This document shows, piece by piece, positions 14 to 45,615 of a stretch of DNA of 64,000 nt. Under the pieces are notes generated by a model. It searched no databases and had not been told where the DNA came from. It saw only the letters and a program-made list of their open reading frames with translations. Source of the stretch: Vulcanimicrobiota bacterium (GTDB lineage Bacteria; Vulcanimicrobiota; Vulcanimicrobiia; Vulcanimicrobiales; Vulcanimicrobiaceae); assembly GCA_963834895.1 (NCBI GenBank), contig CAWIDM010000003.1, forward strand, positions 909,569-973,568, written 5' to 3'. Numbering within the stretch: the stretch's first letter is position 1; each line of letters begins with the position of its first letter. The position numbers and the translations under genes are program-made.

Positions 14-1756
14 ATGCACCAGCGAACCTTTGCGCGCGTCGCTCCGATGCGCGCTCGGCTCTTCTTTTATGGGTGCCTGGCCGTCGCGTTCTTTCTCGCC
101 TGGCGACTCTTCGACGTGCAAGGGCTCAAAGGCGCACTCTACGCAAAAGAAGCGCTCGAGCAGCGTTCCGATACGATTGAGGTCTTTGCGCGGCGCGGCA
201 GCATCCTCGATCGCTACGGAGACGTGTTGGTGCGCTCGCTTCCCTCCGAGAGCGTCTATGCCGTGCCGCGCGAACTGGTCGATCCCGATGCAGCCGTAAC
301 GAAGCTCGAAAAGGTCTTCGGCAAACTCGATCCCGCGACGATCGCGGCGCTGCACGACCGGCACCGCTGGTTTCTCTGGATTGCGCGCAAAGTGCCGCAC
401 GAAACAGCCTCGCGCGTTCGCAGCCTCGGCCTGATCGGAGTCGATTTAAAGGAAGAGGAGAGCGGCCTGAGAGTCGATACGGCTGGACGGCTCGCCTCGA
501 CGGTGTTGGGCTTTGTCGGTACCGACGAAAACGGCCTCGACGGGATCGAATACACATTCGACGACGTGCTCCAGGGCCGATCGGGTCGCGTCACGCTCGA
601 GGCCGACGAGTTCGGGCGGCCGATTCCCTTCGGACGCGAACGCGTTATCACGCCCGCGCTGGGGGGGCTCGACGTCGAGTTGACGATCGATCCCTACCTT
701 CAATTTGTTGCCGAGCGAGCGCTGGCGAAGCAGGTCAGTGCCTTTCACGCACTCGACGGCACGGCGATCGTGATGGATCCCTGGACCGGCGAGATCCTTG
801 CGATGGCCAACATGCCCGATTTCGACCCAAACCGTTTTTGGAAGTACGGGGACGCACAGCGGCGCGACCGAGCCGTGATGGATGCATACGAGCCCGGCTC
901 GACCTACAAGCTCATCACGGCGGCGGCCGCGCTCGAATCGCGTAAGGTCACGCTCGCCAGCCGCTTCCCCGCCCACGACCGCCTCGAGGTAGGCGGTCAG
1001 ACGATTCACAACGCGGAAGACGGTTTCATGGCAGGAACGGGCGGCAGCGAGACGCTCGAGCAGATCGTCGAGTATTCGCACAATGTCGGCGCGGCCGAAG
1101 TCGGGCTCTGGATCGGCTCGAAGACGCTCTATACCATGGAACGCAGAGCAGGTTTCGGGTTGCCGTCCGGCGTCGGACTGCCCGGCGAGAACCCGGGAAT
1201 CGTTCCGCCGCCTTCGGAGTGGAGCGGCTCCTCGCTGGCCACGATGTCGTTCGGTCAAGGCGTTTCGGTTACGCCGCTAGCGATGGCACGTTACTATTGC
1301 GCGATTGCGAACGGCGGACTGCTGATGGAACCGCGAATCGTGCGCGCCGTCTACGACCCGCAAGGCACTCTCGTGCGGAGATATTCGCCGGCCGTCGTTC
1401 GGCGCGTCTTCTCGCAACGCACGGCCGCCGAGCTGCGGACGTTCTTGCGTGCGGTGGTTTTGCACGGCACCGGCGATCCCACCGCGCAGATTCCGGGATA
1501 CGCAACGGCCGGCAAGACGGGCACCGCGGAAATGGTCGTCGACGGCAGCTATCGCGCGGGCTATTACGCCGCGTCGTTCATCGGCATGGTGCCCTACCCG
1601 CGGGCGCGCTACGTGATCTACGTTAAAGTGGAACGGCCGCTCGGCTCGTACTACGGAAGCGTCGTCGCGGCGCCCGCATTTGCCGAGATCGCGCGCGCTG
1701 CGATGCTCCATGCAGGCATCCTGCCCAGCGCCGGCGTGGCGCGCCGTGAGCGCTGA
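14..1756 (+). CDS. ftsI: Class B penicillin-binding protein, peptidoglycan D,D-transpeptidase (FtsI/PBP2B-like)
   Basis: 580-aa ORF with an N-terminal TM helix (LFFYGCLAVAFFLAW). Transpeptidase motifs are present: SxxK (GSTYK), SxN (YSHNVG) and KTG (AGKTGTAE). It heads a dcw-type cluster. The frame is open to the window edge, so the start is uncertain. Confidence 0.9.
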   Translation: MHQRTFARVAPMRARLFFYGCLAVAFFLAWRLFDVQGLKGALYAKEALEQRSDTIEVFARRGSILDRYGDVLVRSLPSESVYAVPRELVDPDAAVTKLEKVFGKLDPATIAALHDRHRWFLWIARKVPHETASRVRSLGLIGVDLKEEESGLRVDTAGRLASTVLGFVGTDENGLDGIEYTFDDVLQGRSGRVTLEADEFGRPIPFGRERVITPALGGLDVELTIDPYLQFVAERALAKQVSAFHALDGTAIVMDPWTGEILAMANMPDFDPNRFWKYGDAQRRDRAVMDAYEPGSTYKLITAAAALESRKVTLASRFPAHDRLEVGGQTIHNAEDGFMAGTGGSETLEQIVEYSHNVGAAEVGLWIGSKTLYTMERRAGFGLPSGVGLPGENPGIVPPPSEWSGSSLATMSFGQGVSVTPLAMARYYCAIANGGLLMEPRIVRAVYDPQGTLVRRYSPAVVRRVFSQRTAAELRTFLRAVVLHGTGDPTAQIPGYATAGKTGTAEMVVDGSYRAGYYAASFIGMVPYPRARYVIYVKVERPLGSYYGSVVAAPAFAEIARAAMLHAGILPSAGVARRER

Positions 1757-3212
1757 ACGCAGCGTCGCGCTGGCGACGTTGCTCGGTCGCATTTCGTGGA
1801 TAGACGTCGCAGGGGATCGGCGGCGCGACGTGAGGGCACTCGAAATTGATTCGCGCGCGGTCGAGCCCGGCGCGCTCTTCGTCGCGCTGCGCGGCAGCCG
1901 GACGGACGGGCACACCTACCTCGCCGATGCAATTGCCAACGGCGCGAGCGCGGTGGTCGTGGAAGAGATGCCGGCTTGCGTTCCTCCAAACGTCACCGTC
2001 GTGCGCGTGGCGGATACGCGCCGGGCGCTCTCTGCGCTTGCGGCCGCGTTTTATGGCGACCCTTCGCTCGCTCTCGACGTCGTCGGGATCACGGGGACGA
2101 ACGGAAAGACGACGGCCACGCACATGGTCGCGGCGATTCTCAACGCGGCGCGCATACCGTGTGGGATCGCCGGCACGGTCGGCGCCGAGTTCGATGGACA
2201 CCGGTGGCCCCTCGAGAACACCACACCGTTGCCGCCGGTGCTGCACGAGTTGCTGTCGCAGATGCGCGACGAGGGCGCGAAGGCCGTCGCGATGGAGGTA
2301 AGCTCGCATGCGCTCGAGCTCGATCGCGTCGACGACGTGCGGTTTCGCGTTGCGGTCTTGACGAACGTGGCCCGCGATCACCTCGATTTTCACCGGACGC
2401 AGGAAGCGTATGCGCAAGCCAAGCGGCGGCTTTTCACGCTCGCAAGAGCGTGCGTGCTGAACGTCGACGATGCATACGGACGTCGCTGGGCGCTCGAGCG
2501 CAAGCTCGAAGGCCGCGAGGTGATCTCTTACGGCCTCCGTGACGGAGCGATGCTCGTTCCGGAAGGAATCGTGACCGAACCCGAAGGCAGCCGCTTTACC
2601 GTAAGCGGCCAGCGCTACGAGCTCCGTCTTTCCGGGCGTTTCAACGTCTGGAACGCGTTGGCCGCGATCGGCGTCGCGCGGCTCTTGGGGATCGACGATG
2701 CGACGAGCGCCGGCGGGCTGGCCGGTGTCGAGCGCGTTCCCGGGCGGATGGAACGGATTATCGCCAACGGAATTACGGTCGTCGTCGATTACGCCCATAC
2801 GCCCGACGCGCTCGAGAATGCGTTGCGTTCGCTGCGGGAAACGGCAGAGGGCGCACTGGCCGTCGTCTTCGGCTGCGGAGGTGACCGTGACCGCGGGAAA
2901 CGGCCCCAGATGGGAAGCGTCGCGGCGCAGCTCGCCGATCGCATCTACGTGACGAGCGACAATCCTCGAACCGAAGAGCCGCAGGCGATCGTCGATGCGA
3001 TCGTTGCCGGAATCGGCGACCGCGTGCGCGTCGTCGAACTCGATCGGCGGCGTGCGATCGAGCGCGCGATCGCCGAAGCGCATTCCGGCGACGTCGTTTT
3101 GATCGCCGGCAAGGGGCACGAGGCCTATCAGATCGTCGCCGATCGGGTCCTGCCCTTCGACGACTCGGCGGTTGCACGCGAGGCGCTCTCGTCGCGCGGC
3201 GCGCTGCGATGA
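1746..3212 (+). CDS. murE: UDP-N-acetylmuramoyl-L-alanyl-D-glutamate--2,6-diaminopimelate ligase
   Basis: Mur ligase P-loop GITGTNGKTT. The DNPR motif (VTSDNPRTEEP) is typical of meso-DAP-adding MurE. GTG 1746 is preferred over the track ATG 1680; it overlaps the ftsI stop by 11 nt. Confidence 0.9.
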   Translation: MSAERSVALATLLGRISWIDVAGDRRRDVRALEIDSRAVEPGALFVALRGSRTDGHTYLADAIANGASAVVVEEMPACVPPNVTVVRVADTRRALSALAAAFYGDPSLALDVVGITGTNGKTTATHMVAAILNAARIPCGIAGTVGAEFDGHRWPLENTTPLPPVLHELLSQMRDEGAKAVAMEVSSHALELDRVDDVRFRVAVLTNVARDHLDFHRTQEAYAQAKRRLFTLARACVLNVDDAYGRRWALERKLEGREVISYGLRDGAMLVPEGIVTEPEGSRFTVSGQRYELRLSGRFNVWNALAAIGVARLLGIDDATSAGGLAGVERVPGRMERIIANGITVVVDYAHTPDALENALRSLRETAEGALAVVFGCGGDRDRGKRPQMGSVAAQLADRIYVTSDNPRTEEPQAIVDAIVAGIGDRVRVVELDRRRAIERAIAEAHSGDVVLIAGKGHEAYQIVADRVLPFDDSAVAREALSSRGALR

Positions 3213-4588
3213 ACTTGCCGCTCGAGCTCGCAACGGCCGTGACGGGGGCGACTCTCTTCGACGCGGAACTGGCGCCCCCGGCGCTGCGCGTGAGCACCGA
3301 TACGCGAATCATCGAGCCGGGCGATGCGTTTCTCGCGCTGCGCGGCGATCGGTTCGACGGACACGATTTCACCGCGGAAGCCGTGCGCCGGGGCGCCGCG
3401 TTGCTCGTGATCGACCGGATCGAGGCACGCGTCGCGGGTGTTGCCGCGCTGCTCGTCGAGGATACGAAGGCCGCCTACATGGCGCTCGCCGGCGCGGCGC
3501 GCCGGCTCTTTGCCGGGCGCATCATCGGGATCACCGGAAGCGGCGGGAAGACGACCACGAAAGCGTTTCTCGCCGCGCTTCTCGCAGTGAAGTACGGCGA
3601 TCGGGTGCATGCCGCCCCGAATAACGAGAACAACGAGATCGGCGTCAGCAAGCTGCTCTTGGACGCGTCGAACGTCGCCCACGACGTCCTGGTTGCCGAG
3701 ATGGGCGCGCGCCATTACGGTGACGTCGCCGCGCTCGTCGAAATTGCGCGGCCGCAGCTCGGTATTCTCACCAACATCGGCGAGGCGCATCTCGAGATCA
3801 TGGGCTCGCGCGAACGACTCGAAGAGACGAAATGGGCGCTCTTCTCCAAAGGCGCCCGTGCGGTCCTGAACGCAAAGGATGAGGCTTCCCGACGTCGGGC
3901 TCCGGGACTCAAGCGTCGCCCTCACTGGTTCGCCGCCGAAGAAGCCTCGCTCGCGGCGCACGCGGCGCTCGAGCCGCTGACGGCCTTGATCGGCGATCGG
4001 CGCTTGGTTCACCGCTCCCGCGAAAGCACCGTTGAGTACGGCGTCGACGTGCGGGTGCCGGGTCTGCACAATCGCGCGAATCTCGCGGCGGCGATCGCCG
4101 GTGCGATCGAGCTCGACGTGCAGCCGGAGCAGATCGTGGGCGCGATTGCGGCCTTGCGGTTGCCGGCAGGACGGTACGATCGAATACCGGCGGCGGGCGG
4201 CGTTGGGCTCATCTACGATGCCTACAACGCGAACGCCAGCAGTATGATTGCCGCGCTCGATGCCTTTGCATCCGAGGCGGCCTCGCGGCGCATCGCGGTG
4301 CTCGCAAGCATGGCCGAGCTCGGCGAAGAGTCGAGGGCGTTGCACGAGCGCGTCGGCTCCCATGCGGCAGGACGAGTCGACGTGTTGCTCGTTAGTGGAG
4401 AGTATGCGGCCGATTTGGCGCGCGGCGCGAAACTCGGCGGTCTCGCCGAGCGGCAAATCGTACGGATCGGTACGAACGCCCAAGCCGCGCAGTGGCTGCG
4501 CGAGAACGCGCGGGCCGACGACGTCGTATTGCTGAAGGGCTCGCGCAAATACAAGCTGGAAGAGATCGTCGAAGAGCTGCGCACGTGA
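3209..4588 (+). CDS. murF: UDP-N-acetylmuramoyl-tripeptide--D-alanyl-D-alanine ligase
   Basis: 459 aa with P-loop GITGSGGKTTTK and Mur ligase middle and C-terminal domains. It has an ATGA overlap with the murE stop. Confidence 0.9.
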   Translation: MNLPLELATAVTGATLFDAELAPPALRVSTDTRIIEPGDAFLALRGDRFDGHDFTAEAVRRGAALLVIDRIEARVAGVAALLVEDTKAAYMALAGAARRLFAGRIIGITGSGGKTTTKAFLAALLAVKYGDRVHAAPNNENNEIGVSKLLLDASNVAHDVLVAEMGARHYGDVAALVEIARPQLGILTNIGEAHLEIMGSRERLEETKWALFSKGARAVLNAKDEASRRRAPGLKRRPHWFAAEEASLAAHAALEPLTALIGDRRLVHRSRESTVEYGVDVRVPGLHNRANLAAAIAGAIELDVQPEQIVGAIAALRLPAGRYDRIPAAGGVGLIYDAYNANASSMIAALDAFASEAASRRIAVLASMAELGEESRALHERVGSHAAGRVDVLLVSGEYAADLARGAKLGGLAERQIVRIGTNAQAAQWLRENARADDVVLLKGSRKYKLEEIVEELRT

Positions 4589-5301
4589 GCATCGCAACCC
4601 GCACGTTGCTCGTCACCCGTCCGGAAGCGCCGGCCGGGTTGATCGCCATCCCCGTTCGCACGCCGCTCGTCCGGCCGGGTGACGACCTGGTTGCGCTCGT
4701 CGCAAGCGCGGTACGAGGCATCGCGCGTCCGGGCGACGTCGTCGCCGTTTCGGAGAGCGCGGTCGCGATCGCGCAAGGCGAGCTCCTTGCCGCCGAGTTC
4801 GTGCGTCCGTCGAGGTTGGCTTTCGCGATCTCGCGCCGCGCCGATCCGATGGCGACGATCAGCCAACCGGAATCGATTCAGCTCGTCATCGACCACGTTG
4901 GTTCGTGGAAAGTCATCTACGCGACGCTGCTGCAGTTCGTCGCGCGGCTCTTCGGCCGGCGCGGAGCCTTCTACCGCGTGATGGGCGATGCGATCGCGGC
5001 GTTCGACGGGTATACGGGAACGATGCCGCCTTACGAGCGTGCAATCGTCTTCGCGCCGCGCGATCCCGACGGTTTTGCTCGATCCGTCGAGGAGCGAACC
5101 GGCGCCGGGTGCGCCGTCGTCGACGCCAACGATCTCGGAAAGGCGAAGGTGCTCGGGCGCTCGAGCGGCGTTCGCGGCGAGAGCGTCGAGGCGGCGCTGC
5201 TCGACAACCCGCACGGCAACAGCGACGAGCAGACGCCGGTCGTCGTGATCAAATGGCGCGGACGCGGAGCCAATCCGCTGGTGCGCGGCGACGCATCGTG
5301 A
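4585..5301 (+). CDS. CofE-fold (F420-0:gamma-glutamyl ligase-like) family protein of unknown role
   Basis: The N-terminus IAIPVRTPLVRPGDDLVALV...RPGDVVAVSESAVAIAQGE follows the CofE pattern (PGDDL ... gDvvvvs.k.vs.aeG). The later segment PRDPDGFARSVEERTGAGCAVVDANDLG matches the CofE dPd.sA..ir...g..v.v.i.D region. GTG 4585 overlaps the murF stop (GTGA), and its own stop overlaps the mraY GTG 5298 (GTGA). Confidence 0.6.
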   Translation: MSIATRTLLVTRPEAPAGLIAIPVRTPLVRPGDDLVALVASAVRGIARPGDVVAVSESAVAIAQGELLAAEFVRPSRLAFAISRRADPMATISQPESIQLVIDHVGSWKVIYATLLQFVARLFGRRGAFYRVMGDAIAAFDGYTGTMPPYERAIVFAPRDPDGFARSVEERTGAGCAVVDANDLGKAKVLGRSSGVRGESVEAALLDNPHGNSDEQTPVVVIKWRGRGANPLVRGDAS

Positions 5302-6269
5302 GCGATCCGTCGCTGCAGTCGCTCGGCTTTTGGGCGCTCTTCGGCTTCCTCGTTGCGGCGCTCGCCGCCGCAGCGCTTCTCGGGCTCTTCGGTCGTCTGC
5401 AGATACGGCAGCACGCCTACGAGGATGCGCCGCAGACGCATCGCGCAAAGACCGGCACGCCGACGATGGGCGGCGTGGTCTTCGTCGTCGTGCTGCTCGC
5501 CGCGTGTGCCGTCAGCCGGGCGCCGCTGCTGCCCGAGCTCGTCTTCTTCGTCGCGCTCTGTGCGGGAATCGGGGCGGTCGATGACGTCGTCAAGATTCGC
5601 CATGGCGCGAACCGGGGTTTGCGCGCCCGCACGAAGTTCTTGGCGACCGCACTCGCTGGGGTGATTTTTTTGCGCGAGATCGCCGCGTCGCCGGCCTTCT
5701 TTCCGCCGGACGTGCTCTTTCACGTGGGAAGCTATTCGCTCGGCGCCGCGCACTGGCTCTGGCTCGCGCTGGGCATCCTCGCGATCACCGGAACGACGCA
5801 TGCCGTCAATCTCACCGACGGTCTCGACGGGCTTGCGGCCGGCACGATGATTCCGCCGTTGATCGTGCTCGCGTTGGTCGCGGCCGCAATGCCGATGCCG
5901 GGCGCGGCGATCGGCGCGGCCGCCGGTGTCGGCGCCTGTGCCGGCTTCCTCATCTTTAACCTTCATCCGGCGAGGCTCTTTATGGGCGATACGGGTTCGC
6001 TCGCGCTCGGTGCGCTGCTGGCCGGCGTTGCAATACTCTGCGGTGAGATGCTGCTACTCGTCGTGATCGGCGGCGTCTTCGTCGCCGAGGCGCTCTCCGT
6101 GATCCTGCAAGTTTCCTACTTCAAGGCGACGCGCGGACGGCGCATTCTTCGGATGAGCCCGTTACACCATCACTTCGAGCTCGCCGGTTGGCCCGAAACG
6201 AGGGTGACGCTTCGCTTCTGGCTTGCATCGCTACTCTGTTCGCTGCTAGGATGGGCCATCGTGCGATGA
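5298..6269 (+). CDS. mraY: Phospho-N-acetylmuramoyl-pentapeptide transferase
   Basis: Polytopic membrane protein with motifs KTGTPTMGG, HAVNLTDGLDGLA and FMGDTGSLALG. GTG 5298 is preferred over the long track ORF that starts at 4905. Confidence 0.9.
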   Translation: MSDPSLQSLGFWALFGFLVAALAAAALLGLFGRLQIRQHAYEDAPQTHRAKTGTPTMGGVVFVVVLLAACAVSRAPLLPELVFFVALCAGIGAVDDVVKIRHGANRGLRARTKFLATALAGVIFLREIAASPAFFPPDVLFHVGSYSLGAAHWLWLALGILAITGTTHAVNLTDGLDGLAAGTMIPPLIVLALVAAAMPMPGAAIGAAAGVGACAGFLIFNLHPARLFMGDTGSLALGALLAGVAILCGEMLLLVVIGGVFVAEALSVILQVSYFKATRGRRILRMSPLHHHFELAGWPETRVTLRFWLASLLCSLLGWAIVR

Positions 6270-7666
6270 GCGATACCTTTCAATTCGGGATCGGCGAGAC
6301 GATACTGATCATCGGTCTCGGGCGCAGCGGATTGGCGAGCGCCGAAGTGCTCGGCGAGCACCGAGTCACTCTCTACGTCACCGACGAGAAACCGGTTACG
6401 GAGCTTGCGGAAGCGATCGCGGAGGCTCAATCGTTCGGAGCGCGCTTCGTCGGGCCCGGAGAGATCGCGAGCATTCTTCCCGAGCTCACCTGCGCCGTGC
6501 TTTCGCCCGGCGTACCGCCGACGTCTCCGGTCGTGCGGTGCCTGCATGCCGCGAACGTTCCGGTCTTCGGAGAGATCGAGCTCGCCTATCGCCTCTGCAA
6601 GGCGCCGATCGTTGCGGTAACCGGAACGAAGGGCAAGTCGACGACGACGGCATTGATCGGGCATCTGCTGCGCGGCTGCGGCCTGGAGGTTCGTGTCGGC
6701 GGCAACATCGGCAATCCGCTCATCGGCGAAGTTCGCGGTGCCGGCGCCGGCGATTGGGTCGTCGCGGAGGTCTCGTCGTTTCAGCTCGAAACGATTCGCT
6801 CGTTCAAGCCGCGGGTCGCCGTTCTGCTCAACATCCTGCCCGATCATCTCGACCGGTACCATTCGATGGAGGAGTACGCCGAAGCGAAGTACCGCATCTT
6901 TGCGAACCAGTCGATGATGGACTGGTTTGTCGGGAATCTCGACGATCCGCGAATTCGCGCGCTTCACTGGCGCCACGGCGGCGCGCGCGTGCAGGCCAGG
7001 CAACTTTGGTTCGCGCTGCAGAACCGCGATCAGGCGACGATCTACGTACGCGACGGAATGGTGATCTACGCTCCGGTCGCGGGCGATCCGCGCCCGGTTC
7101 CGATTCTGCCGCGCGACGAGATTCCGCTGGCAGGCGAGCATAACGTGCGTAACGCCATGGCGGCGCTGCTCGCGGCAATCGCCGTCGGCTGCTCGCCCGA
7201 AGCGCTGCGCGAGGCGATTCGAAGCTTCGAGCCGATGTCGCACCGCCTTCGCACGATTGCGGAGATCGACGGCGTCCGCTACGTGGACGATTCGAAGTCC
7301 ACGAACCCCGCATCGGTGATTGCCGCGCTGCGCACCTATGACTCGCCGATCGTTTTGATCGCCGGCGGCCGCTCGAAGGGGCTCGACTTTCGGGCAATGG
7401 GAGCGGAGATACGCGCACGCGCGAGCGCGCTCGTCACGATCGGCGAATCGGCGAGCGATATTCGCCGGGTTGCGACGGGAGTGCCCGCCGCCGCCGCCTC
7501 GTCGATGGACGAGGCGGTGCGCCGCGCGCGCGAATTCGCGGTTCCCGGCGGGATCGTCTTACTCTCTCCGGGTTGCGCATCGTTCGATATGTTTGCTTCG
7601 GCCGAAGATCGAGGCGAGCAGTTCGCAACCGCCGTCGAAGCGCTGCGAGAGCCGGCCGGTGCATAG
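6266..7666 (+). CDS. murD: UDP-N-acetylmuramoylalanine--D-glutamate ligase
   Basis: N-terminal Rossmann segment ILIIGLGRSGLASA and P-loop VTGTKGKSTT. It has an ATGA overlap with the mraY stop. Confidence 0.9.
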   Translation: MSDTFQFGIGETILIIGLGRSGLASAEVLGEHRVTLYVTDEKPVTELAEAIAEAQSFGARFVGPGEIASILPELTCAVLSPGVPPTSPVVRCLHAANVPVFGEIELAYRLCKAPIVAVTGTKGKSTTTALIGHLLRGCGLEVRVGGNIGNPLIGEVRGAGAGDWVVAEVSSFQLETIRSFKPRVAVLLNILPDHLDRYHSMEEYAEAKYRIFANQSMMDWFVGNLDDPRIRALHWRHGGARVQARQLWFALQNRDQATIYVRDGMVIYAPVAGDPRPVPILPRDEIPLAGEHNVRNAMAALLAAIAVGCSPEALREAIRSFEPMSHRLRTIAEIDGVRYVDDSKSTNPASVIAALRTYDSPIVLIAGGRSKGLDFRAMGAEIRARASALVTIGESASDIRRVATGVPAAAASSMDEAVRRAREFAVPGGIVLLSPGCASFDMFASAEDRGEQFATAVEALREPAGA

Positions 7667-8813: not shown

Positions 8814-9904
8814 CCGTCGTCTTTGCGGGGGGCGGCACGGGCGGTCATCTCTATCCCGCAATCGCGATCGCCGACGCGCTGCGCGCGCGTCGTGCCAAGA
8901 TTGCCTTCGTCGGCACGGCCGACCGGCTCGAGGCGACGATCGTTCCCAAGGCGGGATACGATTTGCACCCTATTGCAAGCCGCTCGCTTCCTCGCTCGCC
9001 GTCGCTCGGAATTCTCGCCACGTTCGGGAGCAACGTGCGGGGAACGCTGCAGAGTCTGCGATTCTTGGCGATGCAGCGTCCCGACCTCGTCATCGCAACC
9101 GGCGGCTACGTCTGCTTTCCGGTTGCGCTTGCGGCCCGCATCCGCCGGATCATGAGACTCTCGACCGCACCCGTCGTCTTGCTCGAACCCAACGCCGAGC
9201 CGGGCTTGACGAACCGCCTGCTGACGCCGATCGTCGACGAAGTTTGGGGACCGGCGCTCGAACCCGATCCTCGTCTGCGCGCGAAATACAGAGCGACGGG
9301 CGTCCCAATTCGATCGACGCTGCGCTCGCTGCCGCGCCGTGAGGATGCGATCGCGCATCTGGGGCTCGATCCGTCGTTGCGAACGCTCCTGGCGATGGGA
9401 GGAAGTCAGGGCGCGCGATCGATCAACGACGCGCTGATGCGCTTGAGCGAGCGCGACGCCTTGCCGCCGGGGTGGCAGCTGCTCGCGCTGACCGGAGCGA
9501 GCGATTACGAGCGGGTGCGCGCGTCGCTGCCCCAAGCGCGGCCATATCTAGACGACATGGCCGATGCATATGCCGCCGCCGATCTGCTCTTGACTCGCGC
9601 GGGCGCCTCGACGCTCGGCGAGCTTGCGGCGCTCGGAAAGCCGTCGATTCTCGTACCGTATCCGTATGCCGCGCAAGGGCACCAGGCCGCGAACGCGCAG
9701 CGCTTCGCCGCCGCGGGCGCGGCGGTCGTGCTCTCCGATCGCGAGCTGCAGGCAGGCGGCTTGCCCGCCGCGCTCGCAGAGGCAACGCAGCCGGCACGCC
9801 TGCAAGAACTCGCCGCCGCCGCCGCGCGCCTTGCAGGAGGCGATCCGGTGGGCGCGATTCTTGCCCGGATCGATGCCTTACTCCCTCGAAAGAGCGAGCG
9901 GTGA
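8810..9904 (+). CDS. murG: UDP-GlcNAc--N-acetylmuramyl-(pentapeptide) pyrophosphoryl-undecaprenol GlcNAc transferase
   Basis: N-terminal FAGGGTGGHLYPAIA and C-terminal RAGASTLGELAALGKPSILVPYP. GTGA overlap with ftsW. Confidence 0.9.
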   Translation: MTVVFAGGGTGGHLYPAIAIADALRARRAKIAFVGTADRLEATIVPKAGYDLHPIASRSLPRSPSLGILATFGSNVRGTLQSLRFLAMQRPDLVIATGGYVCFPVALAARIRRIMRLSTAPVVLLEPNAEPGLTNRLLTPIVDEVWGPALEPDPRLRAKYRATGVPIRSTLRSLPRREDAIAHLGLDPSLRTLLAMGGSQGARSINDALMRLSERDALPPGWQLLALTGASDYERVRASLPQARPYLDDMADAYAAADLLLTRAGASTLGELAALGKPSILVPYPYAAQGHQAANAQRFAAAGAAVVLSDRELQAGGLPAALAEATQPARLQELAAAAARLAGGDPVGAILARIDALLPRKSER

Positions 9905-11292
9905 CGACCTACCACTTCGTCGGCGTCGGCGGCATCGGCATGAGCGCGATCGCGCGCATTCTGCGCGCGCGCGGCGAGCCGGTCTCGGGTTCGGATCTCA
10001 GCATGACGCCGCTCGTTGAGGAGCTGCGTGCCGAGGGGGTGCGGATCGCGATCGGCCACCACACGCGCAACGTGCGCGGCGCCGATGTCGTCGTCGTCAG
10101 CTCCGCTATCGACCGTCGCAATCCCGAATGCCTCGCGGCCGCGCGTCAGGGAGTTCCGGTACTGCATCGCGGCGAGATGCTCGCGCGGCTTCTTCGCGGA
10201 CGCCGCGGCATCGCGGTTTGCGGAACCCACGGAAAGACAACCACGACCGCGATGACGCATGCCGTCCTGCGTGGGGGCGGAATCGATGCGGGGCTCGTCC
10301 TCGGCGGCATCGATTCCACGCTGGGGAGCAACGCCTACGATGGCACCGCGCCGTGGTTCGTGACGGAGGCTGACGAATCCGACGGCTCCTTCGCTCTGCT
10401 CGAACCCTCGATGGCAGTCGTGACGAACATCGAAAACGACCATCTCACCAGCGACGACGAGCTTCCCGGGCTCGCGCGCGCTTTTGCCGAGTTTCTGGCA
10501 AAGCTTCCCGAGGAGGGCCTTGCCCTCATCGGCATCGACAACGCGCTGGCGGCGTCGCTGACTTCGCACGATCTACGCGCACCGATCGTCACCTTCGGGC
10601 TCGACGCTCGCGCGTGGTTGCACGCGGTGAATTTGGCGTTCGCCGATTCCGGCTGCCAATTCGAAGTGGTCGCGGGCGACCGGAGCGTAGGGCAAATCGA
10701 GCTCCGCGTTCCCGGAGCGATGAACGTGCAGAATGCCCTGGGCGCCATCGCCGTCGGCAACGCGCTCGGTCTGCCGTTCGCTTCGATGGCCGCGGCGTTG
10801 CGCGGCTTCCGGGGGGTACGCCGCCGGTTCGAGGTTTTGCTCTCGAACGACCGCGCGACCGTCGTGGACGATTACGCGCACCACCCCACGGCGGTGCGCG
10901 CGACGATTGCGGCGGCTCGCCAGTGCCATCGTGGCGAAATCGTCGTCGCCTTTCAACCGCATCGCTACACGCGAACCGCCTTTCTGGCGCGCGAGTTTGC
11001 GGAGGCGCTGCGCGGCGCGGATCGCGTCTACCTCGCGCCGGTCTACGCCGCATCGGAGCCGGCAATCCCCGGCGTGAGCGAACGTTCGATCGGCGAAGCG
11101 CTTGCGGCGATCGGCGTAACCGCGAGCTACGTGCGCAGCGTCGACGACCTTGAGAGCCGGCTCCTTGCCGAGCTGCCGCCGGGTGGGATGGTGCTGATGC
11201 TCGGCGCGGGCGACATTACCGACGTGGCAGGCCGGCTGGCGAATCGTCTCTCGGCACCCGTCGCACGGCGTGCTGCTTCGGCGGGCGCGTGA
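9901..11292 (+). CDS. murC: UDP-N-acetylmuramate--L-alanine ligase
   Basis: HFVGVGGIGMSAIA and P-loop CGTHGKTTT. GTG 9901 overlaps the murG stop (GTGA). The track ORF from 9472 carries a non-coding extension. Confidence 0.9.
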   Translation: MTTYHFVGVGGIGMSAIARILRARGEPVSGSDLSMTPLVEELRAEGVRIAIGHHTRNVRGADVVVVSSAIDRRNPECLAAARQGVPVLHRGEMLARLLRGRRGIAVCGTHGKTTTTAMTHAVLRGGGIDAGLVLGGIDSTLGSNAYDGTAPWFVTEADESDGSFALLEPSMAVVTNIENDHLTSDDELPGLARAFAEFLAKLPEEGLALIGIDNALAASLTSHDLRAPIVTFGLDARAWLHAVNLAFADSGCQFEVVAGDRSVGQIELRVPGAMNVQNALGAIAVGNALGLPFASMAAALRGFRGVRRRFEVLLSNDRATVVDDYAHHPTAVRATIAAARQCHRGEIVVAFQPHRYTRTAFLAREFAEALRGADRVYLAPVYAASEPAIPGVSERSIGEALAAIGVTASYVRSVDDLESRLLAELPPGGMVLMLGAGDITDVAGRLANRLSAPVARRAASAGA

Positions 11293-12245
11293 GCGTTACG
11301 ACGGCGCGAGCGTTGCGCACGCTCGTCGATGAATCCGACCGGCAGTCGCTGCGCGCAATCTTCGGCGCCCGCGTCGGCTTCGACGAGTCCCTCGCACGAT
11401 ATACGTCGTGGAAGATCGGCGGTCCGGCGGACGCATTCGTAACCGTGGAGAACGAGACCGAGCTCGCGGAGCTGATGCGTTTCTGCTTGCGGCGGCGGAT
11501 GGCGTGGTGGATCATCGGCTCAGGCAGCAACGTACTCGTCGGCGACGGCGGCATTCGCGGTGTCGTGGTGCGGCTCGCCGGCGAGTTTGCAGGCGCAAAT
11601 GTGAGCATCGAGGACGGACGCGTCGTCGTCGATGCGGGCGGATCGGCCGATATGGCGCTCGTGACGGCGAAGGCGGCTTCGGCGGGTGCGGAGGGGATCG
11701 GCTCGCTCGCGGGCATTCCCGGCACGATCGGCGGATCGTTGCGGATGAACGCCGGGACCGATCGGGAGATCGGCGAGTTCGTTCGTGAGGTGCGCGTGCA
11801 ATCGCCCAGCCGGCCCGAGCCGCATCCCGCGAGCGTTCGATACCTTTACCGGCAGTCGACGCTCGCCCGCGACGTCGTCGTCTCTCGCGTGACGCTCGAG
11901 TTTGCTCACTCGAGCGCACGCGACGTCCGCAGCGAGATGCAGACGCGGCTCGTCAGGCGCAAGAAGACGCAGCCGATCGCGCTGCCCAACGCGGGCTCGT
12001 GCTTCCGCAATCCTCCCGGCGACAAGGCGGCGCGCCTGATCGAGGCCGCCGGCGCTAAGGGATGGCGGGAAGGGCACGCTGAAGTCTCCGCGCTGCACGC
12101 AAACTTCATCAATAACCTTGGCGGAGCGACTGCAAAAGACGTTGCCGCGCTCCTCGCGCGCGTGCGCCGCGCGGTGCGCGATCGCTCGAACGTCGAGCTT
12201 GCGCTCGAAGTGCACTTGGTCGGAGTATTCATCGATGCAACCTAA
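11289..12245 (+). CDS. murB: UDP-N-acetylenolpyruvoylglucosamine reductase
   Basis: FAD-binding region YTSWKIGGPADAF and GSGSNVLV, plus the catalytic region NAGSCFRNP. GTGA overlap with murC. Confidence 0.9.
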   Translation: MSVTTARALRTLVDESDRQSLRAIFGARVGFDESLARYTSWKIGGPADAFVTVENETELAELMRFCLRRRMAWWIIGSGSNVLVGDGGIRGVVVRLAGEFAGANVSIEDGRVVVDAGGSADMALVTAKAASAGAEGIGSLAGIPGTIGGSLRMNAGTDREIGEFVREVRVQSPSRPEPHPASVRYLYRQSTLARDVVVSRVTLEFAHSSARDVRSEMQTRLVRRKKTQPIALPNAGSCFRNPPGDKAARLIEAAGAKGWREGHAEVSALHANFINNLGGATAKDVAALLARVRRAVRDRSNVELALEVHLVGVFIDAT

Positions 12246-13188
12246 GTCCGGGGCCAAAGACCGAATCGCCGTCGTGATGGGCGGCAACAGCGCCGAGCGC
12301 GAGATCTCGATTCGATCGGGATCGGAGGTCGTGCGCGCGTTGCATTCGCTCGGCTACGAAGCGCAGTCGCTCGATTACGACGAGCGCTTTTTGGACGCGC
12401 TACGCCAGCTCAAGCCCGACCTCGTCTTCATCGCGCTTCACGGACCCGGAGGCGAGGACGGGCACGTACAGGCGCTCCTCGAATATCTCGCAATCCCGTA
12501 TACGGGCAGCGGGCTCGAAGCCGCCGCGCTCTCGATGGATAAGCATCTCACCAAGAAGCTGCTCGCGGCCGAAGGCTTACCGACGCCGGTTTGGGATCTC
12601 TTCGATCTCACGGGCGGCACTTTGCCGCTGCTCCCGGGATCGCTCGATCTTCCGCTGGTGATCAAGCCGCGGTTTCAGGGATCGGCGGTCGGCGTCGCGA
12701 TCGTGCACACGCACGAAGAGTGGACGAGCGCGATGCTGGGGGCATCGAAGACCTACGCGCAAATCCTCGCCGAAGAATACCTCGAGGGACGAGAGTTCAC
12801 GTGCGCGGTGCTCGGCGAAGAGGCGTTGCCGATCGTGGAGATCGTTGCAAATCGCGATGGTTTCTATAGTTACGGCGCCAAGTACGAGCCCGGCGGCAGC
12901 ACGCACGTCGTCCCCGCGCCGATCGACGAAGATCTGGCGGCTCGCTTGCAGATGCTGGCCCTCTCGGCCCACCGCCTGCTGGGCCTTCGCGACTATTCGC
13001 GCAGCGACTTCATCGTCAGGCCGGATCAGCGCCCGTATCTCTTGGAGATCAATTCGCTCCCTGGGCTGACGCCGGTGAGCCTCTTTCCGGACGCGTGCGC
13101 CGCCGTCGGAATCTCGTTCGAAGCGTTGATCGACCGGCTCGTCGGCTACGCGCGCGCTCGCGCCGATCTGCGCGATGCGGTCGCCTGA
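12235..13188 (+). CDS. ddl: D-alanine--D-alanine ligase
   Basis: ATP-grasp protein with VVMGGNSAEREISIRSG, HGPGGEDG and EINSLPGLT. ATG 12235 overlaps the murB end by 11 nt. Confidence 0.9.
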   Translation: MQPKSGAKDRIAVVMGGNSAEREISIRSGSEVVRALHSLGYEAQSLDYDERFLDALRQLKPDLVFIALHGPGGEDGHVQALLEYLAIPYTGSGLEAAALSMDKHLTKKLLAAEGLPTPVWDLFDLTGGTLPLLPGSLDLPLVIKPRFQGSAVGVAIVHTHEEWTSAMLGASKTYAQILAEEYLEGREFTCAVLGEEALPIVEIVANRDGFYSYGAKYEPGGSTHVVPAPIDEDLAARLQMLALSAHRLLGLRDYSRSDFIVRPDQRPYLLEINSLPGLTPVSLFPDACAAVGISFEALIDRLVGYARARADLRDAVA

Positions 13189-13810: not shown

Positions 13811-14977
13811 TTGCCAACCGTTGTCGATCGTGGCCTCGAAGGCGTCGTCGTCGGGTCCACCGAGCTCAGTAATGTCGAGGGGGCGATCGGGCGCCTCACG
13901 TATCGCGGGTACGACATCGACGATCTCGCGCCGAACGCGACGTTCGAAGAGATCGTTCACCTCTTGCTCTACGGTCATCTCCCGAACCACGATCAGCTCG
14001 AAGCCCTCAAGCGCGAGCTCGGCGCAAGCCGCGCGCTTCCGGAACCGCTCGTCAACGCGATGCAGAACGTTCCCAAGACGGCGTGGCCGATGGACGTGCT
14101 GCGGACGGTCGTCAGCGGCCTCGGACTCTTCTCGCCGGTCGATGCGCAGGGCGAGCACGTCTCCGACGTGCACACCGCGATCGAGCTGATCGCAAAGGTT
14201 CCGACCATCGTCGCTGCGTGGGATCGCATTCGGCGGGAACTCGAACCGGTCGCGCCGCGGTCTGATCTCTCGCAGGCCGGCAACTTCCTGTACATGCGGA
14301 CCGGTAAGGTTCCGCACGCGATCGAAGAGGACGCGCTCGACACGTACTTCGTGCTCCTCGCCGATCACTCGTTCAACGCATCGACGTTTGCGGCGCGCGT
14401 CGTCGCGTCGACGCGCGCCGACATTTACGCTTCGGTCACTGCGGCGCTCGCGACGCTCCAGGGCGATCTCCATGGCGGAGCTGCCAGCGCGGCCTATCGA
14501 ACGCTGACCGAAGTGAAGTCACCTGAGAATGCTGAGCCGTACGTTCGCGGCATCCTCGAGCGCGGAAAGCGAATCATGGGCATGGGTCATCGCGAGTACA
14601 AAGTCCGCGATCCGCGCGCGCGCCATCTCGACGCGATGGCGAAGGAGCTCGCGGGACACGTCGGCGGGGATCGCTGGTACGAAACCGCGCATGCGATCGA
14701 AGCGGCGAGCCGCAAGGTTCTTCAAGAGAAGAAACCGGGCAATACGATCTACGCGAACGTCGACTTCTATACCGCGCCGGTGCTCGCCGATCTGGGCATC
14801 CCCGGCGATGAGTTCACCTGCCTCTTCGCGTGCGGGCGGATCGCCGGCTGGACGGCTCATATCCTCGAGCAACTCGCCGACAACCGGCTCATTCGGCCGC
14901 AAGCGACCTACGACGGACCGGCTCCGGGGCCGTACGTTCCGATCGAACAACGTTCCACAAACGGCGCGCGAGGATAG
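13811..14977 (+). CDS. gltA: Citrate synthase (short, roughly 380-aa type)
   Basis: Motifs GYDIDDLA, GHREYKVRDPRA and NVDFYTA. TTG start at 13811 lies 6 nt after GGAGG (13800-13804). Confidence 0.85.
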   Translation: MPTVVDRGLEGVVVGSTELSNVEGAIGRLTYRGYDIDDLAPNATFEEIVHLLLYGHLPNHDQLEALKRELGASRALPEPLVNAMQNVPKTAWPMDVLRTVVSGLGLFSPVDAQGEHVSDVHTAIELIAKVPTIVAAWDRIRRELEPVAPRSDLSQAGNFLYMRTGKVPHAIEEDALDTYFVLLADHSFNASTFAARVVASTRADIYASVTAALATLQGDLHGGAASAAYRTLTEVKSPENAEPYVRGILERGKRIMGMGHREYKVRDPRARHLDAMAKELAGHVGGDRWYETAHAIEAASRKVLQEKKPGNTIYANVDFYTAPVLADLGIPGDEFTCLFACGRIAGWTAHILEQLADNRLIRPQATYDGPAPGPYVPIEQRSTNGARG

Positions 14978-14985
14978 CGCGTAGC

Positions 14986-15705
14986 GTGTTGGTCGTGCCC
15001 GCGATCGACCTTCGCAGCGGCAAATGCGTCCGTATGCGACAAGGCGATCCGACGACCGAGGTAGAGTACGGCGGCGATCCGGTGGAACGCGCAAAGGCCT
15101 TCGTCGATGCGGGTGCTCAGCGATTACACGTGATCGATCTGGATGCGGCCTTCGGATCCGGCGAGAATCTCGCCGCGGTCGCGCGCATCTGCGAGGCGGT
15201 CGGCGTTCCGGTACAGACCGGCGGCGGCGTGCGTGCCGTCAAGCACGCCGAAGACGCGTTCGCGGCCGGAGCCTCGGAGATAATTCTCGGCACGCTCATC
15301 GTCGAGGACGAGCGGCTCTCCCGGAACATCATCAACCGCTTCGCCGGTAAGATTATCGCCGCCATCGACGCGCGTGGCTCGCAGGTCGCGATTCACGGCT
15401 GGCAAGAGCGCACTCCGGTCGATCGCGATGCGCTCGTTCGCCGCGTCGCGCAGTGGGGCGTCTCGCGCATCATCTTTACGGAGATTCGGCGCGACGGCAT
15501 GGGCGAGGGGTACGACATCGAGGCGCTCAACGCGGTGGCAAATGCCGCCGAAGTCAAGGTCACGGCGAGCGGCGGCGCGCGCAATCTCGACGATCTGCGC
15601 GAGCTCAAGCGCTCGGTTCCTGTCACGGTCGATTCGTGCATCGTCGGCAGCGCGCTCTACAACGGCACGATCGACCTCAAAGAGGCCATCGCCGCCGTCG
15701 CTTAA
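14986..15705 (+). CDS. hisA: ProFAR isomerase (HisA family; could be HisA/PriA type)
   Basis: VVPAIDLRSGKCVRMRQGD at the N-terminus, with GGGVR and IVGSALY in a TIM-barrel pattern. GTG 14986. No other his genes are nearby. Confidence 0.8.
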   Translation: MLVVPAIDLRSGKCVRMRQGDPTTEVEYGGDPVERAKAFVDAGAQRLHVIDLDAAFGSGENLAAVARICEAVGVPVQTGGGVRAVKHAEDAFAAGASEIILGTLIVEDERLSRNIINRFAGKIIAAIDARGSQVAIHGWQERTPVDRDALVRRVAQWGVSRIIFTEIRRDGMGEGYDIEALNAVANAAEVKVTASGGARNLDDLRELKRSVPVTVDSCIVGSALYNGTIDLKEAIAAVA

Positions 15706-16847
15706 CTCGCGGCGTCCTCGTCGACGTATTCGCGGCGCAGCTCGCTCGGAAGACGCGTCACGATCTCGTAGTTGATCGTCTCAGTCCAGACGGCCCAGTC
15801 GTCGGCAGAAATCGTTGCGTCGCCGTCCGTGCCGACGAGCGTGACGGGCGAAGCGACGCGCGCATTCGGCGCGGGGGTGAGATCGATTTCCGTCATGTTC
15901 ATCGCGACGCGTCCGACGATCGGACAGAGCGCGCCGTCCACGAGGAAGGCGCCGCGGTTGGAGAGAGCGCGTGGCACGCCGTCGGCGTAGCCGGCCGGAA
16001 CGACGCCGATGCGCATGTCGCGCGGCGCGTGGAAGCTTCCACCGTAGCCGACGGAGGCACCCGCCGAGATGGCGCGCGTCACGACGATCTGCGAATGGTA
16101 GGAGAGCGCGGGCCGCAGATCGAGCGGCCTTTCCCCCATCGCTTCGCGGGTCTGCGGCGACGGCATCAGCCCGTAGAGCGCGATGCCGAAGCGCGCCATA
16201 TCGAGGCGAGTCTGCGGCCAGAGGATCGCCGCCGCCGATGCGGCGATGTGGCGGAGCGGATCGAGACCGCTCCGGTCAAGCAGCGGCTTCGCCTGCGCGA
16301 GGGCGCGCTCGAAGGCCGCGAGCTGATGCATCGTGTACGGCGAGTCGAGCTCTTCGGCGGAGGCCAGGTGCGAGAAGATGCCGGTAAGCGCGACCTCGGG
16401 CAGGCGCAGCAACTCTTCGAGCGCGTCGACCAGCTCGTGCGGCTCGAAGCCGAGGCGGTTCAGATCGGTATTGATCTTGACGTGCACCGCGGCGGTTCTC
16501 CCGCGTTTACGCGCCGAGGCGCGGAGACGCCGGACGAACGCTCCGGTCGTCCAGATGGCGAGCTCGACGCCGGCGGCGAGCGCGTCGTCGAGCGCCTCGG
16601 GCGGGGTCGGTCCTAAAACCAGAATGGGGCCTGCGATGCCGCCGGAGCGCAGCGCCAGGGCCTCGTCGATGGTGTAGACGCAGAGGCGCGCCGCGAGCGG
16701 TTCGACCGCCCGCGCCACCGGAAGAAGCCCGTGACCGTAGCCGTTTCCCTTGACGACGAAGGCCGCCCGGCTCGGCCCCACGAGATCACAAAGCAAGCGA
16801 GCATTGTGCCGCAGGTTGCTTAGCGAGATTCGCAGGCCGCCGATCAC
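15702..16847 (-). CDS. alr: Alanine racemase
   Basis: 381 aa with the PLP-lysine motif FVVKGNGYGHG and a C-terminal beta domain carrying GYADG. Confidence 0.85.
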   Translation of the reverse strand: MIGGLRISLSNLRHNARLLCDLVGPSRAAFVVKGNGYGHGLLPVARAVEPLAARLCVYTIDEALALRSGGIAGPILVLGPTPPEALDDALAAGVELAIWTTGAFVRRLRASARKRGRTAAVHVKINTDLNRLGFEPHELVDALEELLRLPEVALTGIFSHLASAEELDSPYTMHQLAAFERALAQAKPLLDRSGLDPLRHIAASAAAILWPQTRLDMARFGIALYGLMPSPQTREAMGERPLDLRPALSYHSQIVVTRAISAGASVGYGGSFHAPRDMRIGVVPAGYADGVPRALSNRGAFLVDGALCPIVGRVAMNMTEIDLTPAPNARVASPVTLVGTDGDATISADDWAVWTETINYEIVTRLPSELRREYVDEDAAS

Positions 16848-41086: not shown

Positions 41087-41872
41087 GTGCATTCGTCGCG
41101 GCGGGAGCGTGCGGTCGTTCTTCTCCACGGCATGAGCGCGAGCCCGATGCAATTCGAGCGCGTGGCAAACGATCTGCACCGCCGCGGGCACAACGTGCTC
41201 GTTCCCCGTCTCCCTCACCACGGTCACGCCAATCCGCTCTCAACCGCGCTCGCGCGACTTCAGGCCGAAGAGCTTTACGACGCGGTGGCCGAGTACGTTG
41301 CGATCGCGCAGGAGCTCGGCGAGCGCGTGACGGTTGCGGGATTCTCGCTCGGCGGTCTGCTCGCGGCTTGGGCCGCACAGCACCATGAGATCGAGCGCGC
41401 CGTTCCGATCGCGCCCTTCTTCGGAGTCTCCTGGATTCCGAACCGGTTGATGGGCCCCGTTGCCGAGCGGTTGCTGCGCGTGCCGAATCGCTTTCACTGG
41501 TGGAATCCGATCCTTCGCGAACGGCAATACCTCGCGACGAGCGGTTATCCGCGTTATGCGACGCACGCGATCGCGCATTCGTACCGCATCGCACGCTCGC
41601 TGCTCGACGAAGCTCGCGCGAATCGTCCGGTCGCCGAACACGTTACTATCGTCGCCAACGCAACCGAACTCGCGGTCAACAACTACGCGATTCGGCGCCT
41701 CTACGAAACGTGGCGCCGGCATCGTCCCGAGGGCGTCGAGCTGGCCATACTCACCGGGCTGCCGCTCTCGCACGACATCGTCTCACCGCTGCGCCGCCGG
41801 CGCCTCGCCGATCGCGTGCATCCGCATCTCCTGCGTGCGATCGATCCGGTCGCGGCGGTCCAAACGGCCTAA
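41087..41872 (+). CDS. Alpha/beta-fold hydrolase
   Basis: Only the C-terminal third of the 651-aa track ORF looks like real protein. It carries VVLLHGMSASP (oxyanion HG) and the nucleophile elbow GFSLGG. The GTG 41087 start is tentative. Confidence 0.65.
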   Translation: MHSSRRERAVVLLHGMSASPMQFERVANDLHRRGHNVLVPRLPHHGHANPLSTALARLQAEELYDAVAEYVAIAQELGERVTVAGFSLGGLLAAWAAQHHEIERAVPIAPFFGVSWIPNRLMGPVAERLLRVPNRFHWWNPILRERQYLATSGYPRYATHAIAHSYRIARSLLDEARANRPVAEHVTIVANATELAVNNYAIRRLYETWRRHRPEGVELAILTGLPLSHDIVSPLRRRRLADRVHPHLLRAIDPVAAVQTA

Positions 41873-43947: not shown

Positions 43948-43982
43948 GGCAGCGCTCTTGGGCATGCAGCGGCGTGAAGAGC

Positions 43983-45338: not shown

Positions 45339-45607
45339 TGTGCTGTCCCAGAAGTTCGGTGCATAAAGTCGCGAGCGCCGGAGCGCACTGGCGAGGCGCG
45401 AGGAGGGAGCGTAGCCGTAGCTCTGTGACCGACGAGCAACAAAGCCAGTGCGCATCCGCCGCCGCGACCCTTCGGGCTGGCCGTTTGACGGTCGCGGGCT
45501 GCGTCACTCTTCGCTCGCAAAGCGCTGCTTTTGTCGCTCATCGTTCCTTGCCCGCACTCCACCAAACGGCCAGCTTTATACATCGAACTCCTGGGACAGC
45601 ACACTAG
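45335..45607. mobile_element. MITE-like element E1 (273 bp, 34-bp TIRs, non-autonomous)
   Basis: CTAGTGTGCTGTCCCAGAAGTTCGGTGCATAAAG at 45335-45368 pairs with its inverted partner at 45574-45607, with 3 mismatches in 34. A near-identical copy lies at 56216-56488 in inverted orientation. Confidence 0.8.
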
Positions 45608-45615
45608 GGAACCTC

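Follow-up and report, generated by a model that had tools for sequence, protein, structure and literature searches.

The catalogue of cytoplasmic steps in peptidoglycan synthesis is regarded as complete, and murF and mraY form one of the most constant gene pairs of bacteria. The Mur ligases (MurC to MurF) and Mpl form amide bonds through an acyl-phosphate on substrates built on uridine diphosphate-N-acetylmuramic acid (UDP-MurNAc), and MurT/GatD and AsnB1/LtsA amidate D-isoglutamate (D-iGlu) or meso-diaminopimelate (meso-DAP) of peptidoglycan precursors. That the seemingly complete Mur pathway is still gaining steps is shown by MurL, an additional cytoplasmic enzyme that was found recently and is proposed to use ATP to activate the α-carboxylate of Glu (PMC8788868). 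A separate family of amide-forming ligases is that of coenzyme F420-0:L-glutamate ligase, CofE, together with FbiB's N-terminal domain (PF01996 and TIGR01916; structures 2PHN, 2G9I and 7ULD). Within this superfamily, FolC2 of Chlamydia trachomatis (CT611, a CofE homologue of COG1478) complements an Escherichia coli folC mutant (PMC1971073); FolC2 acts on a substrate other than F420 and is thus a precedent for functional shifts in the CofE fold. Here we describe a 238-aa protein, which we label X, encoded between murF and mraY in a 64,000-nucleotide stretch of DNA from a Vulcanimicrobiota bacterium (contig CAWIDM010000003.1, positions 909,569 to 973,568 of the forward strand). This whole stretch is called the window, and coordinates refer to it unless another locus is named. 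X is probably a functional variant, not previously described, of the CofE superfamily, and we lean towards a role as a nucleoside triphosphate (NTP)-dependent amide ligase that modifies a peptidoglycan precursor. A conserved extra enzyme between murF and mraY points to an undescribed precursor step or modification, in a phylum, Eremiobacterota, that is widespread in soils and little studied. We found no publication on gene X or on a CofE-family member in division and cell-wall (dcw) clusters, a survey of Mur chimeras included (PMC10214165), and the description of the first cultured member of Eremiobacterota, Vulcanimicrobium alpinus, gives no peptidoglycan chemistry and does not mention X.

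Gene order around X and its conservation

Gene X occupies 4585–5301 on the + strand, with 238 codons and a stop. Its GTG start codon (4585–4587) overlaps the TGA of murF (4586–4588), and its own TGA (5299–5301) overlaps the GTG of mraY (5298–5300), each junction reading GTGA on the + strand (4585–4588 and 5298–5301). The initial annotation, made from the letters of the window, had proposed a 238-codon gene in this place with GTGA overlaps on both sides, and both points are borne out by the open reading frame (ORF), the junction sequences and the Pfam identification of the flanking genes. The upstream gene (3209–4588, +) matches Mur_ligase, Mur_ligase_M and Mur_ligase_C, and was named murF, for the UDP-MurNAc-tripeptide:D-Ala-D-Ala ligase, because it is placed after murE and because the order is conserved in 80 related loci. 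The downstream gene (5298–6269, +) was identified as mraY, for the phospho-MurNAc-pentapeptide translocase, by a Glycos_transf_4 match of 110.7 bits and by the junction sequence. A longer version of X, beginning at an in-frame GTG at 4492, was rejected; homologues begin with MS(L/I)AT, which matches a start at 4585.

Pfam matches give the order of the block as ftsI–murE–murF–X–mraY–murD–ftsW–murG–murC–murB–ddl. The run from murE to murD (1680–7666, +) is joined by ATGA at 3209, GTGA at 4585, GTGA at 5298 and ATGA at 6266, and further 4-nucleotide overlaps are found at ftsW/murG, murG/murC and murC/murB. With 4-nucleotide overlaps at consecutive junctions, X therefore stands inside an unbroken chain of translationally coupled essential genes. 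The overlapping stop and start codons would allow X to be made in fixed proportion with MurF and MraY. Across the dcw block, 7 of the 10 junctions checked are ATGA or GTGA overlaps (3209, 4585, 5298, 6266, 8810, 9901 and 11289); the coupling around X is the general style of the operon and nothing particular to X.

The 120 closest homologues of X, with 73–94% identity, bear names from Eremiobacterota, among them Candidatus Cybelea and Baltobacteraceae. Two family motifs were used to scan one genome per species; this gave 318 loci, and the best 80 of these 318, nearly all labelled Eremiobacterota or Vulcanimicrobiota, were examined. The order murF–X–mraY was present in all 80 species-level loci, and this arrangement is therefore not a matter of chance. 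Among the 79 loci in which the junctions were scored, a 4-nucleotide overlap was found at murF/X in 71 and at X/mraY in 63. Across the loci, the mean identity to the protein of the window was 74.6% for X, 73.3% for MraY, 73.4% for MurD, 66.0% for MurF and 66.2% for MurE, showing that X is as conserved as MraY. Distant members, with 53–55% identity, are likewise located between murF and mraY. The insertion that had been singled out in this one window is thus shared by all the relatives examined in the survey of dcw clusters.

Relation of X to CofE

Searches by profile and by structure both assign X to the CofE family and fold, and no other family matched; the CofE-like classification suggested by the initial annotation was confirmed in this way. 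X matches Pfam PF01996 (F420_ligase) with 54 bits against a gathering threshold of 25, over residues 24–170 of X and only positions 2–132 of the 218-position profile. Its scores against the NCBIfam CofE equivalogs TIGR01916, NF009809 and NF009810 are 38.1, 33.0 and 23.2 bits, far below the respective cutoffs of 180.65, 274 and 304, and these matches are confined to the N-terminal ~80 residues of X (46 for the weakest model). The sole relatives retrieved by a PDB sequence search were the entries for CofE of Archaeoglobus fulgidus (AfCofE), which matched over the first ~80 residues with an E-value (E) of 2e-5. The AlphaFold2 model of X, computed from an input alignment of 38 sequences with 27–84% identity, has a mean predicted local distance difference test score (pLDDT) of 90.9 and a predicted template modelling score (pTM) of 0.86. 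Using Foldseek against the PDB, the model matched only CofE (2PHN, 2G9I and 7ULD), with E 1e-10 to 8e-10, probability 1.0 and template modelling (TM) scores of 0.56–0.59, and the next match had an E above 1; the model and the search together thus give X the 'butterfly' fold of CofE. X has no Pfam match to Mur_ligase_M or Mur_ligase_C, which its neighbours murE, murF, murD and murC carry.

Full-length mapping of X onto CofE required true CofE sequences: against the PDB, a profile of close homologues (alignment A1) gave a short N-terminal match only, and a profile of diverse homologues (alignment A2) added the segment around D180. The true CofE set was taken from plasmids and comprised sequences from Sinorhizobium meliloti pSymA and Agrobacterium rubi and a divergent Streptomyces copy. 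A cofE from a Natrinema gelatinilyticum plasmid (NZ_CP100757.1, 1392–2139) was dropped from the set since it looked frameshifted; its ORF is canonical in the N-terminal half (NAGIDRSN) but out of frame beyond it, possibly as a pseudogene or through a sequencing error. With this set, hhalign aligned the X family to CofE over residues 27–228 of X with 98% probability and E 1.4e-13. X is about 23% identical to CofE. The aligned Asp and Glu positions of CofE are retained in X, and the two would probably have their chemistry in common, namely NTP-dependent formation of an acyl-phosphate and then of an amide.

Four segments carry the retained residues. D51, in a 'GD' motif (codon 4735–4737, +), is at least 90% conserved in the X family and aligns with the invariant Asp of the CofE 'DGD' motif in the alignments and in hhalign. 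D141-G-Y-T144 (codons 5005–5016, +) belong to the family motif (I/F)D(G/D)xxGT, in which D141, at least 90% conserved, aligns by hhalign with the Asp of CofE NAGIDxSN; the initial annotation had read AFDGYTG in place of NAGIDxSN, and the profile–profile alignment agrees with it. D180-A-N182-D183-L-G185, in 'VVDANDLG' (codons 5122–5139, +), align with CofE (T/N)D(T/S)xGR both in hmmsearch against PDB chains and in hhalign, with the two registers 2 residues apart, and D180 is invariant in the 93 multidomain relatives described below. N208-P-H-G-N-S-D-E215-Q-T-P218 (codons 5206–5238, +) align with CofE 'MGQxxEGxP', with E215 on the conserved CofE Glu in hhalign; alignment A2 shows no variation at N208, P209 and P218 and at least 90% conservation at G211 and T217. 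Overall, D51, D141, D180, N182, D183, N208 and T217 range from 90% conserved to invariant, even among relatives only 25–30% identical. E215 is mostly conserved only, and the Negativicutes subfamily has Gln at this position. In AfCofE, D109, D150, T151 and E208 are said to be Mn ligands, as Nocek and colleagues reportedly described in 2007. This numbering was cross-checked only by the numbering offset of the PDB chain and by the mention of G153–C155 in a later paper (PMC10861534).

The classical CofE motifs as such (NAGIDxSN, (T/N)D(T/S)xGRPWR, SKAEGR and MGQxxExxP) are not present in X, where only D141, the D/N/D cluster at 180–183, G185, G211, E215 and P218 retain motif positions in hhalign. 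The X family has (I/F)D(G/D)xxGT instead of NAGIDxSN and A(I/V)xQG(R/E) instead of SKAEGR, the latter being A-I-A-Q-G-E in X itself. Furthermore, in hhalign nothing in X corresponds to ~28 of the residues lying between GRPWR and ADExAAAA in CofE, most members of the family end directly past the last strand without a C-terminal tail, and X has an extra helix at about residues 107–123. In CofE, the F420 head group is contacted by a domain-swapped β-hairpin, by R234 of the C-terminal tail (AfCofE) and by F92 (PMC10861534). The ~28-residue gap probably corresponds to this hairpin, and the absent tail to the one that carries R234 in AfCofE; judged from the alignment, X would lack all three head-group elements (hairpin, C-terminal Arg and F92).

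The degraded motifs could also be explained if X had lost catalysis and served as a structural adaptor between MurF and MraY at the membrane, channelling UDP-MurNAc-pentapeptide for example, or as a regulator of that step. The tight translational coupling of X to both partners, one MurF–X fusion, and the Ig-like or TPR interaction domains and membrane anchors of its relatives would fit such a role. The seven residues that are 90% conserved to invariant, however, are polar or acidic and lie on CofE active-site positions, not in surface patches, and we disfavour the adaptor because this pattern is typical of retained catalysis; in addition, relatives are found in many places where neither MurF nor MraY is close by. 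We regard a purely structural or regulatory X as improbable.

It is very improbable that X is a genuine coenzyme F420-0:L-glutamate ligase, as the public databases have it. Such an assignment would be in accord with the fold, with a PF01996 score above the gathering threshold and with the names given by NCBI and JGI to many X homologues ('coenzyme F420-0:L-glutamate ligase'). It is contradicted by the equivalog scores, by a Pfam match that ends at position 132 of the profile, and by the loss or replacement of the hairpin region, NAGIDxSN and SKAEGR. Genomic context argues against it as well. No gene for F420 biosynthesis or F420-dependent enzymes was seen among the ~40 largest ORFs of the window, nor were any of cofC, cofD, cofG, cofH, fbiC and npdG found there or in those dcw loci that were inspected for gene content, and Eremiobacterota are absent from the phyla listed with F420 synthesis in a 2021 review of F420. 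In contrast to X in its cell-wall operon, the control cofE genes of S. meliloti pSymA and A. rubi adjoin npdG and cofH. Judged from its sequence, X is not a CofE equivalog, in agreement with the initial annotation, which had called it probably not an F420 enzyme. Given the low equivalog scores, the lost F420-specific parts and the absence of F420 genes from the ORFs inspected, the database names probably go too far on the strength of the Pfam domain. With about 1,600 matches per search, many entries are probably mis-annotated in this way, which would distort surveys of F420 distribution.

Fusions, membrane-anchored forms and the Negativicutes module

To describe the wider family, we exhaustively searched representatives clustered at 50% identity and obtained 719 clusters at E<1e-3, of which 404 were below 1e-10. 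Of these, 93 multidomain representatives were scanned with Pfam, and 57 of the 93 matched PF01996 at E below 1e-5. Fusions to Amidase_3 (N-acetylmuramoyl-L-alanine amidase) were found in six of the 93, fusions to an AsnB-type glutamine amidotransferase plus asparagine synthetase in five, and TPR repeats in 11, with single fusions to MurF, a PgdA-type polysaccharide deacetylase, an M20 peptidase, GNAT and adenylate kinase. The MurF–X fusion is 736 aa long with a linker of ~30 residues. Two representative clusters match Glycos_transf_4 (MraY-type) in the Pfam scan. Three apparent X–MraY fusions (P0129, P0177 and P0221) contain long out-of-frame stretches, probably assembly frameshifts, and were not used; in GC-rich genomes stop codons are scarce in the other reading frames, so that frameshift errors give false fusions.

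The commonest multidomain architecture is a protein of ~400 aa, named from Armatimonadetes and Eremiobacterota, with an N-terminal transmembrane helix, an Ig-like β-sandwich and an X domain. Its model has a pLDDT of 91.4, and Foldseek returned CofE together with generic adaptin-ear and ApaG-like sandwiches; the matches of the Ig-like N-domain, all to generic β-sandwiches, are uninformative on function. Stand-alone members have no signal peptide, and the X domain is therefore taken to be cytoplasmic. Other members are named from a Limnochordales metagenome-assembled genome (MAG), Thermodesulfobium, Natranaerofaba, Oscillospiraceae MAGs and an Actinomycetota MAG. In two loci of different lineages, the 400-aa X-like gene is preceded by a divergent upstream gene for a protein of 521–557 aa without a Pfam match (L083, 6272–7837, −; L084, 6161–7834, −) and has a STAS-domain protein downstream; both proteins are candidates for additional conserved partners.

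In one lineage, folD (9206–10060; loci L084 and L085), for methylene-THF dehydrogenase/cyclohydrolase, starts at the stop of a 401-aa X-like gene. No other link to folate was seen, and with this one comes the question of whether X is a FolC2-type enzyme that glutamylates dihydropteroate or folates and replaces or supplements FolC. The ability of the chlamydial CofE homologue to complement folC lends substance to this idea, and the high conservation of X would fit an essential housekeeping role. The chlamydial gene, however, clusters with folate genes (PMC1971073), whereas X accompanies murF and mraY in 80/80 loci and murI in Negativicutes, and neither the window nor the dcw loci inspected for gene content showed a folate gene close to X. 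Moreover, fusions to amidase, AsnB-type and PgdA-type domains and tethering to the membrane are a poor fit for a soluble folate enzyme. On this comparison of gene contexts, a folate-glutamylating X is unlikely.

Sporomusa has the helix and sandwich encoded on their own, in a 180-aa gene (orf180) directly upstream of a 223-aa X homologue; orf180 and the N-domain fused in the ~400-aa class are homologous (E about 1e-16). The 223-aa homologue is 71–88% identical across Sporomusa, Pelosinus, Propionispora, Thermosinus, Methylomusa and Lucifera, and its presence in Sporomusa species confirms that the family is found in cultured organisms; V. alpinus would be expected to carry it too. A metagenome scan gave 574 Negativicutes-type loci, and the best 80 of these 574, with 34–64% GC and many from human-gut assemblies, were examined. 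orf180 was directly upstream of the X homologue in all 75 loci with enough flank, and murI, for glutamate racemase, was upstream on the same strand in 47 of 60. Ham1 and Metallophos genes lie downstream of the X homologue in a human-gut contig (locus L151) and in Sporomusa. No orf180, that is, no membrane-anchor partner, was found in the 64-kb window, and the Sporomusa-type X protein had no match on plasmids.

As side observations on this arrangement, orf180 and the 223-aa X homologue form a two-gene module in Sporomusa (CP155574.1, locus L086, 7447–8672) and in loci L101–L180, and the two parts are fused as one ~400-aa protein in Armatimonadota and some Eremiobacterota. The module sits between murI and either an HgdD-like/BcrAD-activase pair or the Ham1–Metallophos genes, with a 4HBT thioesterase upstream.

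Negativicutes carry cadaverine or putrescine amide-linked to the α-carboxyl of D-Glu in their peptidoglycan, where it is bound by the SLH domain of OmpM/Mep45 (PMC5020339, PMC10628300, PMC12826042). The enzyme attaching these polyamines was not named in the literature searched. Papers by Kamio reportedly describe a lipid intermediate:diamine transferase activity that is particulate and acts on the D-Glu α-carboxyl of lipid-linked precursors. Veillonella, Selenomonas and Anaerovibrio are genera in which polyaminated peptidoglycan has been demonstrated. The X family might be this missing enzyme, attaching cadaverine or putrescine to the D-Glu α-carboxyl of peptidoglycan precursors, a proposal that we consider rather unlikely. 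Consistent with it are the amide-forming ligase fold, the membrane-tethered partner, conservation across Negativicutes beside murI, and the occurrence of members in Limnochordales, Armatimonadota, Thermodesulfobium and Eremiobacterota. Against it, no polyamine-synthesis gene is consistently linked, and some members come from taxa that presumably have a single membrane (an Oscillospiraceae MAG and an Actinomycetota MAG). The human-gut contig of locus L151 (CDZT01019048.1) has a gene of the S-adenosylmethionine decarboxylase family (PF02675, polyamine synthesis; 6767–7543) three genes downstream of the X homologue, which is a weak hint in favour of the proposal. If the proposal were true, the presence of X between murF and mraY in Eremiobacterota would mean that polyaminated peptidoglycan or a related D-Glu amide is widespread in outer-membrane-bearing Terrabacteria.

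Proposed role of X and other genes of the window

Synteny and domain fusions suggest modification of the peptidoglycan stem or precursor as the best-supported reading of X. The CofE fold, the retained acidic residues and the loss of F420-specific parts together lead to the prediction of an NTP-dependent carboxylate–amine ligase with a new substrate. As candidate substrate, the insertion into the dcw cluster, the linkage to murI, the fusions to cell-wall domains and the frequent membrane tethering point to a late cytoplasmic peptidoglycan precursor. These associations arise in separate lineages: the murF–mraY insertion in Eremiobacterota, the murI linkage in Negativicutes and the fusions elsewhere.

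In the mechanism we propose, X would be a cytoplasmic member of the CofE superfamily that has come to serve peptidoglycan synthesis. On the analogy of CofE, which depends on GTP and Mn2+ to add L-glutamate to F420-0, X would bind an NTP together with a divalent metal and phosphorylate a carboxylate of its substrate, and attack of an amine on the resulting acyl-phosphate would give the amide. The data show the gene, its fold, its divergence from true CofE, its conservation and synteny and the fusions of its relatives, whereas catalysis, NTP dependence and both substrates are predicted. The substrate may be UDP-MurNAc-pentapeptide, the product of MurF and substrate of MraY, or else lipid I or II, and the likeliest site would be a free carboxyl of the stem peptide, either the α-carboxyl of D-Glu or the carboxyl of the diamino acid. 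The first natural substrate of CofE ends in a lactyl carboxylate, as UDP-MurNAc does (PMC1971073).

Several known enzymes offer points of comparison. X would share with MurT/GatD and AsnB1/LtsA the principle of using an NTP in the cytoplasm to modify a free carboxyl in the stem peptide of a late precursor, and AsnB-type domains are fused to X-like domains in five clusters; the folds, however, are unrelated (Mur-ligase-like plus glutaminase, and asparagine-synthetase type, respectively), and X has neither a Mur_ligase nor an Asn_synthase domain. The Mur ligases and X are co-translated and would both form amides via an acyl-phosphate, but X has no Mur_ligase match in Pfam and Foldseek found no Mur ligase. 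We also considered whether X is MurL and rejected this, since MurL is reported from other taxa and without known conserved domains (PMC8788868), whereas X is a member of PF01996.

A number of points weigh against this proposed role in peptidoglycan synthesis. The substrate of X is deduced only from gene context, and dcw gene order does not follow pathway order, so that position alone does not define the step at which X acts. Shared gene order in a single phylum (Eremiobacterota) or class (Negativicutes) can be partly inheritance, and in the latter the orf180–X pair may simply have been inserted into the murI–…–rph–rdgB–ysnB block, an old arrangement of Firmicutes. Among the fusions, the lone MurF–X protein comes from one 2.9-kb contig, and the apparent X–MraY fusions had to be set aside as probable frameshifts. 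With Gln in place of E215 in Negativicutes and an ambiguous register at D180/N182, the metal site is not proven. Finally, about half of the contexts of distant relatives contain no recognisable cell-wall gene; several distant members have none nearby, and one lineage has folD directly downstream.

The same half of the contexts would be expected if X were a ligase for another small molecule with no bearing on the cell wall, for instance a cofactor, compatible solute or peptide metabolite, and occupied its dcw position only for constitutive expression. dcw clusters do sometimes carry unrelated passengers. A passenger, however, would not be expected inside an overlap chain of essential genes in 80/80 loci, nor would it account for three kinds of cell-wall association in separate lineages. 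We therefore judge this explanation to be unlikely, and still prefer a peptidoglycan-precursor ligase. On that reading, the X family is a candidate source of orphan peptidoglycan chemistries, for instance D-Glu amides with polyamines or amino acids; these chemistries matter for the tethering of the outer membrane in diderm Firmicutes of the human gut and mouth.

Elsewhere in the window, the dcw block closes with ddl (12118–13188), followed by citrate synthase (13811–14977), and ftsQ, ftsA and ftsZ were not found among the larger ORFs. An alanine racemase gene lies near the block on the opposite strand (15702–16847). Further away, two PMT_2-family glycosyltransferases (41869–43965 and 47241–48755, −) flank an AMP-binding acyl-adenylate-forming enzyme (45616–47241), and this region (41869–48755, −) may be an envelope glycosylation or lipid module. 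A 1074-aa tricorn-type protease (50545–53769, −) with a PD40 β-propeller, Tricorn C1/PDZ and Peptidase_S41 domains adjoins a GH125 α-mannosidase (53826–55229). A 470-aa protein of the Beta-lactamase family PF00144 (36990–38402, −), a family that includes class C β-lactamases, may also be related to the cell wall.

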